Positions 4,553 to 9,423 of a DNA stretch of 64,000 bases are shown here, piece by piece; within the stretch, counting starts at the first letter, position 1; each line of letters opens with the position of its first letter. A model generated the notes under the pieces. The model was not told where the DNA came from and did no database searches. It saw only the letters and a program-made list of their open reading frames with translations. Source of the stretch: an uncultured Clostridia bacterium. GTDB taxonomy: Bacteria; Bacillota; Clostridia; TANB77; CAG-508. A program made the position numbers and the translations under genes. The DNA lies in NCBI GenBank assembly GCA_944387425.1, contig CALXEV010000003.1, forward strand, positions 662 to 64,661, written 5' to 3'.

Positions 4553-4987
4553 ATGCAAAATTTAATGGAAGTAGTTGGTTCAATGTTTTTCAAAGATGGA
4601 AAATTACTTATAGATAAACCTCGTTCAAAAAAGACTTTTCAAATGATTGGCGGAAAAGTAGAAAAAGGAGAAACAATAAAAGAAGCTGCTATAAGAGAAT
4701 GCCACGAAGAATTAGGAGAAAAAGCAATTTTTGATGAAGAAAAACTAGAATTTGTAATGGATTTTGAAGAAATTGCAACAAGTGATCCAAGTAGAAAAAT
4801 TCATATGAATATTTTTAGATATAATGGTGAGTTGAAAGGCGAACTAACCGTTTCAGAAGAAATAGAAAAATTTATGTGGTTTGGAGCAGATGACAATAGA
4901 GATTTATTGTCAAACACTTTAAAAAATGAAATAGTTCCATATTGTATAAAAAATGGACTTATAACAAATAAAGAACAAGAAAGATAA
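4553..4987 (+). CDS. NUDIX hydrolase
   Basis: The Nudix box GGKVEKGETIKEAAIRECHEELG is present. Confidence 0.8.
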   Translation: MQNLMEVVGSMFFKDGKLLIDKPRSKKTFQMIGGKVEKGETIKEAAIRECHEELGEKAIFDEEKLEFVMDFEEIATSDPSRKIHMNIFRYNGELKGELTVSEEIEKFMWFGADDNRDLLSNTLKNEIVPYCIKNGLITNKEQER

Positions 4988-5108: not shown

Positions 5109-5165
5109 TTGACAAAGGATAAAATAGGGTATATATTATTAGCAGTCAAACAAAAAGAGTGCTAA
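5109..5165 (+). promoter_or_regulatory. groESL sigma-A promoter plus CIRCE (HrcA operator)
   Basis: TTGACA lies at 5109-5114, then a 17-nt spacer, then TATATT at 5132-5137. CIRCE ttagcagtc-N9-gagtgctaa lies at 5139-5165 and matches the consensus at 17/18 positions. Confidence 0.85.
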
Positions 5166-5197: not shown

Positions 5198-7155
<1,958 letters not shown>

Positions 7156-7169
7156 AATATAAAAAATAT

Positions 7170-7198
7170 TTGCAAAAAATGTAAATTTATGATATAAT
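7170..7198 (+). promoter_or_regulatory. Near-consensus extended -10 promoter in front of the GC-rich micro-ORF
   Basis: TTGCAA lies at 7170-7175, then a 17-nt spacer, then TGaTATAAT at 7190-7198. A 17-nt palindrome ccaagcaagttgcttgg follows at 7209-7225. Confidence 0.55.
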
Positions 7199-7249
7199 AA
7201 AATTTGAACCAAGCAAGTTGCTTGGACAAATTTTAGGAGGTAAAACACT

Positions 7250-7396
7250 ATGGTAACGGACATCAAGAACATCATGATTGTGGAAATCGGTGGCGTGGAG
7301 TACTATGCTCCGTCGATTCTGCCGACGAACAGGGAATGGTTTGAAGCCGAGAAATTGGCTGCGAGCCTGAACCGTCAGAAGTTCTTCGAAGAGTAA
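7250..7396 (+). CDS. 48-aa hypothetical protein encoded by a compositionally foreign (about 49% GC) micro-ORF
   Basis: I translated this by hand: MVTDIKNIMIVEIGGVEYYAPSILPTNREWFEAEKLAASLNRQKFFEE. AGGAGG lies at 7235-7240, 9 nt before the ATG. I count 72 G+C in 147 nt. Its codons (CTG, CCG, ACG, GGC, GTG, ATC) are ones the neighbouring genes avoid. It is below the ORF-track length cutoff. Confidence 0.45.
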   Translation: MVTDIKNIMIVEIGGVEYYAPSILPTNREWFEAEKLAASLNRQKFFEE

Positions 7397-7402
7397 TACC
7401 TA

Positions 7403-7440
7403 GAAGGAGCCCTGCGTAATGCAGGGGTCCTTCGTTTTAT
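7403..7440 (+). terminator. GC-rich rho-independent terminator after the micro-ORF
   Basis: gaaggagccctgc (7403-7415) pairs with gcaggggtccttc (7421-7433), a 13-bp stem with one mismatch, followed by gttttat. Confidence 0.8.
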
Positions 7441-7469
7441 TCTTTTTTCTCTATATCAATTTATTTGAA

Positions 7470-7555
7470 TTCATTATATATTAATATTTTTTGGCAAAAC
7501 ATATCTAGGGTGTAACAATCAGGGTCTTGCCTTTAAAATATTAATATATAATGAA
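7470..7555. repeat. 86-nt hairpin with 21-bp perfect inverted-repeat arms
   Basis: ttcattatatattaatatttt (7470-7490) is the exact reverse complement of aaaatattaatatataatgaa (7535-7555). An inner 8-bp stem pairs ggcaaaac (7493-7500) with gtcttgcc (7524-7531) with one mismatch. Confidence 0.7.
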
Positions 7556-7668
7556 CTTAAATTATCATATATAGATAAGAAAGATATGTAAAACACTTGC
7601 TTTTTTCCATGTTTTAGAGTATAATCAAATACGTAAAAATCGGACTATTAATAAGGAAGGAAAATAAA

Positions 7669-9423
7669 ATGAAAGCAATTGAAATTAGAAATAAATATTT
7701 AAACTTTTTTAAACAACATGGACATACTATAATACCATCTGCTCCATTAATTCCAGAGAACGATCCATCAGTATTATTTACAACAGCAGGAATGCAACCA
7801 TTAGTTCCATATTTATTAGGTGAACCACATCCAGCAGGACGTAGATTAACAGATTATCAAAAATGTGTAAGAACAAATGACATAGAAGAAGTTGGAGATA
7901 ATCGTCATTTAACATATTTTGAAATGCTTGGAAACTGGTCATTAGGTGACTATTTTAAAGAAGAATCTATCCAAATGAGTTATGACTTCTTAACAAAAGA
8001 ATTAAACATACCAGCTGAAAAAATATCAGTAACATGTTTTGCAGGAGACGAAGATTGCCCAAGAGATACAGTTACTGCAGAATGTTGGAAAAAAGCTGGA
8101 ATACCAGAAGAAAGAATATATTATTTTGGAAAAGATGACAACTGGTGGATAGCAGGAGAAGAAGGACCATGTGGACCAGATACAGAAATGTTTTATGATA
8201 CAGGAAAACCAAAATGCTCTGAACATTGTGATCCATCATGTGGTTGTGGTAAATATGTGGAAATTTGGAATAATGTATTTATGGAATATTTCAAAGACAA
8301 AGATGGAAAATATACAAAATTAAAACAACACAATGTAGATACAGGGCTTGGATTAGAAAGAATGACAATGCTATTACAAGGCAAAGAAACTCCATTTGAA
8401 ACTGAATTATTTGCGCCAGTAATGGACAAACTAATAGAGCTACAAAAAGTTGATAATATAGCAAGTAGAAGAATAATTGCAGAACATTTGCGTTCAAGTA
8501 TGATGATTATATGTGATGGTGGAAGACCAAGCAATATAGATAGAGGATATATTTTAAGAAGATTAATTCGTAGAATGATAAGACATATGAACAAATTACA
8601 AATATCTTTGGAAGAATTATCCACATTAATAGACATAAATGTGGATAACTTAAAAGAAATGTACCCTGCACTTGAAACAAATAAAGAAACTATAAAATCA
8701 GTAATAATAGAAGAAAAAGATAAATTTGTAAAAACTTTAACAAAAGGAGAAAAAGAATTTTACAAAGAAATAGAAAATGTAAAAAAACAAGGAAGCAATA
8801 TTGTACCTGGAGAAATGGTATTTAGATTATATGACACATATGGATTTCCACCAGAAGTTACAAAAGAATTAGCTTCTGAAAATGGAATGGATATTGACAA
8901 AGAAAAATTTGACGAATTATTTAAAAAGCATCAAGAAAAATCAAGAGCAGGAGCTGAACAAAAATTTAAAGGAGGACTTGCTTCAACAGGTGAGATGGAA
9001 ACAAAATATCATACAGCAACACATCTTTTAAATGCAGCATTAAAACAAGTGCTTGGTGCACATGTTCATCAAAGAGGAAGTAACATTACAGCAGAAAGAA
9101 TGAGATTTGATTTTTCACATCCAGCAAAAATGACAGATGAAGAAAAACAAAAAACTGAAGATTTAGTAAATGAATGGATTAAAGAAGCAATTCCAGTAGA
9201 ACATCTAGAAATGAAAAAAGATGATGCAATACGTGCAGGTGCAGAAGCAATGTTCATTGAAAAATATGGAGATATAGTATCTGTATATAAAATAGGAGAT
9301 AAATCAATTGAATTATGTGGAGGCCCTCATGTAAAAAATACATCTGAACTAGGTCATTTCAAAATAAAAAAAGAAGAATCAAGTTCATCAGGAGTTAGAA
9401 GAATAAAAGCTGTTTTAGAATAA
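7669..9423 (+). CDS. alaS: Alanine--tRNA ligase, short form (584 aa, no C-Ala domain)
   Basis: The class II catalytic core is present (LFTTAGMQPLVPYLLG, FEMLGNWSLGDYFK), as are the editing-domain motifs HTATHLL and CGGPHV. The protein ends right after GVRRIKAVLE. A promoter lies upstream: TTGCTT (7597-7602), 17-nt spacer, TATAAT (7620-7625). Confidence 0.85.
   Translation: MKAIEIRNKYLNFFKQHGHTIIPSAPLIPENDPSVLFTTAGMQPLVPYLLGEPHPAGRRLTDYQKCVRTNDIEEVGDNRHLTYFEMLGNWSLGDYFKEESIQMSYDFLTKELNIPAEKISVTCFAGDEDCPRDTVTAECWKKAGIPEERIYYFGKDDNWWIAGEEGPCGPDTEMFYDTGKPKCSEHCDPSCGCGKYVEIWNNVFMEYFKDKDGKYTKLKQHNVDTGLGLERMTMLLQGKETPFETELFAPVMDKLIELQKVDNIASRRIIAEHLRSSMMIICDGGRPSNIDRGYILRRLIRRMIRHMNKLQISLEELSTLIDINVDNLKEMYPALETNKETIKSVIIEEKDKFVKTLTKGEKEFYKEIENVKKQGSNIVPGEMVFRLYDTYGFPPEVTKELASENGMDIDKEKFDELFKKHQEKSRAGAEQKFKGGLASTGEMETKYHTATHLLNAALKQVLGAHVHQRGSNITAERMRFDFSHPAKMTDEEKQKTEDLVNEWIKEAIPVEHLEMKKDDAIRAGAEAMFIEKYGDIVSVYKIGDKSIELCGGPHVKNTSELGHFKIKKEESSSSGVRRIKAVLE

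Follow-up and report, generated by a model that had tools for sequence, protein, structure and literature searches.

A small transcription unit lies between the groEL and alaS genes of an uncultured Clostridia bacterium (contig CALXEV010000003.1 of assembly GCA_944387425.1), and its composition is sharply different from that of its surroundings. The stretch of DNA analyzed here, referred to as the window, comprises 64,000 nucleotides of this contig. The host belongs to a lineage of uncultured, AT-rich gut Clostridia, and its closest species representatives have alanyl-tRNA synthetases (AlaRS) approximately 91% identical to that of the window. In the unit, a candidate micro-gene, an extended -10 promoter close to the consensus is followed by a 5'-proximal stem-loop, a Shine-Dalgarno (SD) sequence, an open reading frame (ORF) of 48 codons and an intrinsic terminator (Table 1). 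The promoter scores 10/12 with the TG extension in a promoter scan, the stem-loop begins about 3 nt past the predicted transcription start, and the predicted transcript is approximately 240 nt long. As judged from these predicted signals the unit is self-contained, with a promoter and a terminator of its own. An earlier note on this DNA, made by reading the letters, had described the unit in these terms. Every element was found again where the note had placed it and its counts were reproduced, the promoter was borne out by the scan, and the 48-codon frame with the quoted peptide is present in the ORF list. At one position of the terminator stem the window has a G.G mismatch where most other strains have a G.U pair, and this single mismatch caused a consensus terminator scan to miss the cassette terminator.

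Table 1. Features of the groEL-alaS spacer and its surroundings, in window coordinates.
Feature	Position	Strand	Details
groEL-alaS spacer	groEL ends 7155, alaS starts 7669		513 bp
Cassette promoter	7170-7198	+	-35 TTGCAA (7170-7175), 17-nt spacer, extended -10 TGATATAAT (7190-7198)
5'-proximal stem-loop	7209-7225	+	17-nt palindrome CCAAGCAAGTTGCTTGG, CCAAGC AAGTT GCTTGG; in the minimum free energy fold
Shine-Dalgarno sequence AGGAGG	7235-7240	+	9 nt upstream of the ATG at 7250
48-codon ORF with stop codon	7250-7396	+	peptide MVTDIKNIMIVEIGGVEYYAPSILPTNREWFEAEKLAASLNRQKFFEE; predicted cytoplasmic
Long hairpin in coding region	7280-7322	+	codons 11-25; RNAalifold consensus
Second, shorter hairpin in coding region	7338-7367	+	RNAalifold helices 4 and 5
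Intrinsic terminator	7403-7448	+	13-bp GC-rich stem (7403-7415 with 7421-7433), loop GTAAT, T-rich tail
NUDIX gene	4553-4987		144 aa; pyrG-groES interval
groES promoter and CIRCE element	5139-5165 (region 5109-5165)		TTGACA promoter; CIRCE TTAGCAGTC-N9-GAGTGCTAA
Imperfect inverted repeat	7441-7584		50-nt arms (7441-7490, 7535-7584), 44-nt core; GGCAAAAC...GTCTTGCC
alaS promoter	7597-7625		about 40 nt before the ATG
alaS	7669-9423

The G+C (GC) content of the window is 27.5%, with a standard deviation of 4.9% for windows of 120 nt. Positions 7211-7460 form the sole GC island with a 120-nt peak above 0.44, the peak reaching 0.53; a second high, inside ftsZ, just touches 0.44. The ORF itself has a GC content of 0.49 (72/147), distributed over codon positions 1, 2, and 3 as 0.47/0.31/0.69. 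Its values at the first two positions (GC1 and GC2) are host-like, the corresponding figures being 0.53/0.36 for groEL and 0.45/0.34 for alaS, whereas GC content at third positions (GC3) is 0.123 ± 0.021 among 54 long host ORFs, with a maximum of 0.17. The codon adaptation index (CAI) of the ORF relative to host genes is 0.143, compared with 0.709 ± 0.054 for the host and a lowest value of 0.459 among 2000 host segments of 48 codons. Codons with less than 10% host usage account for 23 of the 45 degenerate codons in the ORF; host segments of the same length contain 2.5 ± 1.6 of them and never more than 9. The anomaly in GC content and codon usage first seen by eye is thus, with sliding GC and codon adaptation computed, far beyond chance, and the control elements are host-like as had been described, the promoter also being conserved in position among relatives.

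Odd composition, and nothing else, might favor an artefact of assembly or a chimera, an option that the earlier note had left standing. Contigs were collected by exact look-up of the peptide, the window GroEL and the window AlaRS, and more than 30 independent metagenome contigs, assembled in different studies and by different programs, contain the cassette base for base. The junctions are the same in each of them and the spacer of 513/514 bp is essentially identical, which refutes an artefact and leaves it a negligible probability. The gene caller of the public collection recognized the ORF on only three contigs of about 500 bp and skipped it on every long contig, including loci L004-L013 and L098-L125, presumably due to its non-host codon usage. 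Protein databases and protein-level searches consequently under-sample the family to a great extent. One strain of the window's species (L097, positions 1279-1350) carries a 21-nt insertion, GTAATTAAGAAGGAGTGATTT, in the 5' untranslated region (UTR) of the cassette upstream of the hairpin, together with the substitution E12G.

Relatives of the cassette occupy the same location in other species. Eighty related species were fetched via AlaRS, only a few of which keep groEL beside alaS. L094 and L095 (short contigs) and L098-L100, with AlaRS 95% identical to that of the window, encode an orthologue, M(K/E)NHSKKHESNSNVMLVKVDGMEYFAPSISPLKAGWFEAEKLASELNKKALQKLGFAR, in the same place between groEL and alaS, and L101/L102 (AlaRS 93% identical) carry the orthologue MVQVKSFDCDGLKIYYADGTPIDKGYWEARDKAVRLNREEVEKIA in the same slot. 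These orthologous peptides, of 58 and 45 aa, are 54% and 27% identical to that of the window. The alleles of this A family share the promoter, the position of the 5' hairpin, the SD and the terminator with its GTAAT loop, and the lineages that carry them are separated by host synonymous divergence (dS) of 0.36 for groEL and 0.54-0.61 for alaS, indicating that the cassette predates the split of these lineages. Most of the clade lacks the cassette, as does L015, where an empty spacer of 144 bp consists of the groEL terminator and the alaS promoter. In L016, L017, L038, and L105-L116 another ORF family is found within the same expression frame. The ORFs of L016, L017, and L038 (57-63 aa) align as one family with the motif WP..G...NE.G.MI, have GC3 values of 0.28-0.62 compared with 0.11-0.13 in alaS, and are framed by a TTGCAAAAAAT...TGnTATAAT promoter, a 5' hairpin, GGAGG and a terminator. 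With hhalign the A family showed no detectable homology to the B/C/D family, and despite some resemblance by eye the idea of a common origin was dropped. The promoter, TTGCAAAAAAT...TGnTATAAT, stands at the same position in all cassette-bearing relatives and is 83-96% identical even where no alignment of the transcribed parts is possible. When 93 loci and the window were searched strictly for this architecture, it turned up at this spacer only. A more distant relative, L071 (AlaRS 75% identical), has a 71-aa ORF directly after groEL (1140-1355) with GC3 of 0.42, apparently encoding a two-helix membrane peptide, so that the place just after groEL may serve small accessory genes of this group in general.

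Several properties of these alleles argue that the unit is a coding gene, and the description of it as a micro-gene was upheld. A GC excess at third codon positions only points to coding, since a structured RNA would have no reason to show three-base periodicity. Every allele family retains the SD (GGAGG), an ATG at much the same distance from it and the open frame, and the gaps between alleles A1 and A2, of 18 and 12 nt, correspond to whole codons. Within a 38-codon core the differences at codon positions 1, 2, and 3 number 13, 9, and 23. Comparison of the window and L098 alleles gives a nonsynonymous divergence (dN) of 0.33 and a dS of 1.37, and dN/dS for the cassette ORF is approximately 0.24-0.28, values that are rough due to saturation of dS. 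The proportions of nonsynonymous and synonymous differences (pN and pS) in allele comparisons are 0.27 vs. 0.63 and 0.33 vs. 0.66. The motif G..YYA..P....W.EA...A..LN[RK] is common to A1, A2, and A3 and is encoded by different codons. The ORF is therefore predicted to be translated. A structured non-coding RNA within which the ORF is fortuitous would fit a GC island in an AT-rich genome, the strong fold and the covarying helices described below. It is at odds with an excess confined to codon position 3, with retention of SD, ATG and open frame even in alleles that are 48% and 27% identical, with gaps in multiples of three, and with an amino acid motif kept through different codons. Rfam 15 returned 0 matches at gathering score over the whole window, and at E values up to 10 over positions 6900-7900 it returned only noise, the best scores being 12-18 bits vs. 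thresholds of 39-245; a scan for tRNA and tmRNA genes found none. A non-coding RNA is accordingly unlikely here, with only a very slight chance of being the right explanation. The suggestion of a structured small RNA (sRNA) survives in part, in that the mRNA is unusually structured and contains a compensatory coding hairpin, while codon periodicity and the lack of an Rfam match speak against the remainder of it.

No donor for the cassette could be traced. A database of 5.8 billion proteins searched with the peptide and the family profile yielded only the window's own copy and P0002, and a library of 1.84 billion representatives yielded P0002 only, P0003 and P0004 being repeat noise. The scan of Joint Genome Institute (JGI) metagenomes with the family profile recovered the same species only. 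Nothing was found by tblastn against phages and plasmids, nor in IMG/VR with the peptide, a degenerate WFEAEKLA pattern and the B, C, and D peptides, and INPHARED phages, IMG/VR and PHROGs contained no relative of the micro-protein; in all, approximately 15 billion proteins and the collections of phages, plasmids and viruses yielded no donor. The persistence of the GC excess was evaluated with a two-state neutral decay model of GC3 with a host equilibrium of 0.123. Starting from a GC3 of 1.0 at the A1/A2 split, this model arrives at 0.37-0.50 at present, while the observed alleles have 0.69 and 0.63-0.66, and L101 has 0.48. By this estimate a GC3 of 0.69 could not have lasted without selection, so that either selection or supply from an unsampled reservoir would account for the high GC3.

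These results bear on whether the cassette was recently acquired, in the manner of a phage moron, from a GC-richer donor and has not yet ameliorated. A GC3 of 0.69 vs. 0.12 and a CAI of 0.14 are what suggests such an import, together with the empty site in L015, the unrelated ORF families occupying the same slot in sister species, and within-species allele swaps showing that DNA enters the slot by recombination. The import reading has nevertheless to accommodate diverged orthologues at the same site in lineages at host dS 0.36-0.6, host-like GC1 and GC2, a promoter that is host-like and conserved in position, the lack of any relative in the collections searched, and a decay estimate incompatible with long unselected residence. 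A foreign cassette is on this evidence improbable, although it retains a real minority share. The earlier note's wording of a "very recently acquired or engineered" unit found no support in light of the diverged cassette in sister-lineage slots, the missing donor, the host-like GC1 and GC2 and a GC3 too high for an unselected remnant. The comparison of the spacer in relatives that it had proposed revealed a much diverged orthologous segment in the same slot.

Allelic variation at the slot is most pronounced in a neighboring species represented by L105, L106, and L111, whose contigs encode exactly the same AlaRS protein (P0079). L105 and L106 have virtually identical spacer flanks and dS values of only 0.012 for alaS and 0.014 for groEL, yet their cassette ORFs are 48% identical, with dS of 1.57 and dN of 0.44. 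The divergent block extends from just after the -10 element to the stop codon, the terminator being identical, and the L111 allele is a mosaic. Such a pattern is what allele exchange by homologous recombination between conserved flanks leaves behind, old and highly diverged alleles being maintained in the population. A single allele is predominant in the window's own species. Its ORF polymorphisms comprise 6 nonsynonymous changes (E12K, E12G, A20V, A33V, R42H, and H42Y) and 1 synonymous change, compared with 3 nonsynonymous and 16 synonymous in alaS (Fisher p = 0.002-0.004). Such a ratio, extremely fast evolution of the peptide, and the absence of the cassette from L015 and most of the clade could reflect a neutral by-product, namely a segment that drifts fast between a strong orphan promoter and a terminator and is transcribed into messages for functionless peptides. 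A drifting segment would not readily explain open ORFs behind perfect SDs in each of six or more diverged alleles, pN below pS in both comparisons, a motif conserved across A1, A2, and A3, or GC3 held against mutation pressure, and it has little chance of being correct. Two mutational mechanisms were also considered and rejected. Hypermutation by a diversity-generating retroelement does not match alleles that differ by indels and all kinds of substitution and whose 5' UTR diverges too; no template repeat, as a second copy of the ORF, was found in the 64-kb window, while reverse transcriptase genes elsewhere in the genome were not searched for. Transcription-associated hypermutation should also affect the terminator, which is transcribed and yet identical between hyper-diverged alleles.

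The transcript is unusually structured, folding in full length with z = -5.4. Folding of the ORF was compared with that of synonymous recodings in which the peptide and the G/C class at every third position are unchanged. Relative to these, the native ORF of the window has z = -2.35 to -2.56, with -2.5 to -2.9 for L098, -2.4 to -3.2 for L101 and -4.05 for L017; the effect is weaker in L016 (-1.2) and L038 (-0.7). Judged against a null of 40 host-gene segments (mean +0.6, standard deviation 1.27, one of the 40 below -2.3), excess structure is thus present in four of six alleles. When the window ORF is recoded to host-like codons ending in A or T, its folding energy changes from -45.4 to -24.3 kcal/mol. 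In the RNAalifold consensus of three diverged A lineages, whose structure was predicted from the same alignment, the long coding hairpin has 18 pairs, 6 of them changed on both sides, with 88% of cells paired, and the shorter one has 10 pairs, 2 with double changes, so that its support is weaker. The terminator stem has 7 of 13 pairs changed on both sides across alleles, around a conserved GTAAT loop. Other alleles have a different hairpin at the position of the window's 5' stem-loop, and in a sister allele (UCAAGC...GCUUGA) the outer pair has changed from C-G to U-A in a compensatory manner. An operator palindrome was considered for this element; as the hairpin sequence varies between alleles at a kept position and one pair covaries, an RNA stem-loop is more likely.

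A transcript of this kind invites comparison with the dual-function sRNAs of the Firmicutes, of which SR1/SR1P is the type (PMC3526287; reviewed in PMC12612679). The approximately 240-nt RNA would in that case be both a peptide mRNA and a structured regulatory RNA. SR1 homologues measure 200-230 nt and encode peptides of 37-42 aa (PMC3526287), and the micro-gene is likewise predicted to give a stand-alone transcript of about 200-240 nt, of sRNA-like size, from a strong promoter of its own to an intrinsic terminator, at a conserved intergenic position, with a peptide of about 40-50 aa. Pronounced structure, including the fold of the full transcript, synonymous sites arranged for structure and compensatory pairs inside the coding sequence, adds to the likeness. 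SR1 and SR1P are, however, highly conserved over long evolutionary distances, whereas the micro-gene ORF is hypervariable, and a transcribed sequence so variable offers no single-stranded seed that is conserved. The unit resembles SR1 neither in sequence nor in Rfam searches, the peptide is free of Cys in contrast to the Cys-rich SR1P, no base-pairing target is known within a view limited to 64 kb, and the GC3 and rare-codon signature is a feature of the micro-gene and not of SR1. With D alleles also lacking excess structure, a dual function is doubtful and receives a low probability.

The micro-protein is acidic and hydrophilic and contains no Cys and no hydrophobic stretch. An AlphaFold2 (AF2) single-sequence model with a predicted local distance difference test (pLDDT) score of 70 places strands at residues 2-5, 8-13, and 16-21 and a helix, predicted to be amphipathic, at 28-47. 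No match was found in Pfam, PHROGs, PADLOC, and NCBIfam with the window peptide and five other alleles, nothing significant came from PDB sequence profiles, and Foldseek searches of the model against PDB and BFVD gave best E values of 2.7 and 0.39. The absence of a transmembrane segment and of a recognizable family, remarked on from the outset, was confirmed. A type I toxin or other small membrane peptide was rejected for a protein of this hydrophilic and acidic character. Some resemblance exists to one 20-residue unit of cell-wall-binding or combined repetitive oligopeptide (CROP) repeats (PF01473-like; TcdA), in the (D/G)G.EY(Y/F)AP of the window and the DGLKIYYADG...GYW of L101. The TcdA repeats in the PDB profile search have E values of 0.8-3.7, which are not significant, the unit is present in a single copy, and there is no Pfam match. 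The resemblance serves as a lead to the identity of the protein, the one such lead obtained.

Two further systems share part of the organization of the locus. Phage morons, a concept of Hendrix and Juhala with criteria summarized in PMC2920897, resemble the cassette in its location between genes that are adjacent elsewhere (144 bp in L015 vs. 513 bp in the window), its predicted promoter and terminator, its composition (GC 0.49 vs. 0.275 and GC3 0.69 vs. 0.12), and the different inserts at the same hotspot in different genomes. Unlike a moron, the cassette resides in the core chromosome with no phage genes nearby, its neighbors being pyrG, a NUDIX gene, groES, groEL, alaS, a HIT gene, a sortase gene and ligA. 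It is transmitted by descent and has diverged where it stands, copies are missing from all phages, plasmids and other taxa searched, and its composition shift is confined to synonymous sites and apparently maintained rather than imported. The second parallel is with pherotype peptides such as those of comC, comX, and agrD, which are polymorphic allelic cassettes with conserved flanks under balancing selection. Highly diverged small-ORF alleles within one species, near-identical flanks and mosaics are common to both. The micro-gene differs in having housekeeping neighbors and no adjacent receptor, processing or transport gene, and its protein has no leader or signal sequence. The unit is thus a small-protein gene or a moron-like unit with an unusual evolutionary regime, and it belongs to no named family.

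The best explanation of these observations, held at a probability of roughly 55%, is that the unit is a native, unannotated, lineage-restricted and hypervariable micro-gene in a conserved expression slot, whose GC-rich synonymous sites are kept by selection. The slot comprises the near-consensus extended -10 promoter, the stem-loop close to the 5' end, a strong SD, 45-64 codons of ORF and the intrinsic terminator, the frame being conserved and the ORF hypervariable within a small clade of uncultured AT-rich gut Clostridia. This layout, the constancy of the frame, the variability of the ORF, the distribution of GC over codon positions and the surplus of RNA structure are established. Homologous recombination through the promoter and terminator, both conserved, may exchange the alleles, with diversifying or relaxed selection acting on the protein. 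The GC excess, kept at synonymous third positions in all alleles, would most simply be attributed to selection on the mRNA. GC-rich codons roughly double the predicted folding stability of the message and, in the window's family, appear to support the coding-region hairpin; they also fill the ORF with codons that the host almost never uses. In Bacillus, 5'-proximal stem-loops stabilize mRNAs, and by analogy the stem-loop of the micro-gene may act as an mRNA stabilizer. The mRNA may accordingly be strongly transcribed, abundant, long-lived, nuclease-resistant and slowly translated, with GC-rich synonymous sites serving mRNA folding or nuclease resistance, slow translation of rare codons, or both. 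The cytoplasmic mini-protein might bind a fast-evolving partner, for example a factor of a phage or competitor; a hypervariable surface combined with allele swapping would point to such binding. A more far-reaching version is a chromosomal "expression socket," a fixed frame of promoter, 5' hairpin, SD and terminator in the core genome, in which tiny-ORF alleles are swapped by homologous recombination and diversified by an arms race while synonymous sites are held GC-rich in the face of a strong AT mutation bias; this is tentative and on balance unlikely.

A number of points weigh against the interpretation as a native gene under selection. The signals of the unit are all sequence predictions. 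Saturation of dS blurs the estimate of constraint on the protein, and the conservation of structure is drawn from three lineages, with the structure predicted from the alignment that is then used to support it. In the D-family alleles GC3 is high and the arrangement of codons adds no surplus of structure (z = -0.2 to -1.3), so that GC for the sake of structure is not proven as a general cause; structure accounts for part of the GC signal and not demonstrably for all of it. Relaxed constraint would account for the surplus of nonsynonymous polymorphisms just as well as diversifying selection would. Lack of homology between the A and B/C/D families implies replacement of the ORF, not divergence in place, on at least one occasion, and an unsampled GC-richer reservoir, a phage or plasmid with the same flanks, may be the source of the alleles. 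A conflict function of the mini-protein is purely conjectural.

The genes around the cassette have signals of their own. A TTGACA promoter and the CIRCE (controlling inverted repeat of chaperone expression) element precede groES (Table 1). No terminator is present between the groEL stop codon and the cassette promoter (7156-7169) in the window, and likewise in L098 and L017, while the groEL terminator is kept in L015, L016, L038, and L101. In the window, CIRCE-controlled heat-shock transcription of groESL should therefore run into the micro-gene, and the cassette terminator would probably also end this read-through. Downstream, alaS has a separate, conserved promoter and no leader of T-box size. 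A role of the unit as an alaS leader peptide or attenuator was rejected, as a strong terminator, a spacer of approximately 160 nt and the separate alaS promoter intervene. A minus-strand antisense promoter at 7592-7564 was also dismissed, the scan giving 7 sites where 4.5 ± 2.1 are expected by chance.

Between the cassette terminator and the alaS promoter lies a large imperfect inverted repeat, the arms of which are 82% complementary and which occurs as a single copy in the window. L094 and L098 have the element too, there partly duplicated, and L095 lacks it, which makes it an indel resembling a miniature inverted-repeat transposable element (MITE). The AlaRS proteins of the whole clade (the window and loci L014-L125) are 583-585 aa long, with the Pfam domains tRNA-synt_2c and tRNA_SAD. 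Bacterial AlaRS usually has about 870 aa, and that of the clade seems to be without the C-terminal domain. The NUDIX gene upstream of groES is present in the window, L004, L005, L007, and L010 and missing from other strains with identical GroEL (compare L006, L008, L009, and L011-L013), a presence/absence polymorphism of approximately 440 bp. In L012, which represents one strain within the window's species, a Y1 transposase gene of the IS200/IS605 type (PF01797; positions 451-909) is inserted between HSP20 and PAP2 genes upstream of pyrG.

For the lineage and for related genomes the locus has several implications. A compositional island in a core-genome spacer can be native and selected, which bears on the practice of calling "foreign DNA" from composition. 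Micro-genes of this kind would be systematically missing from gut-microbiome catalogues. The locus offers a compact natural system in which selection on synonymous sites (GC3 of 0.5-0.7 in a genome at 0.12), acting via mRNA structure or rare codons, coincides with diversifying selection on small proteins. Should the notion of an expression socket be true, the mRNA would be unusually folded and nuclease-resistant, or its translation dependent on the decoding of rare codons, as in a message that works still, or only, during attack by a phage or toxin on host RNA or tRNA. If the role in conflict were true, the micro-gene would represent a new kind of minimal defense or immunity determinant in an abundant uncultured gut lineage.

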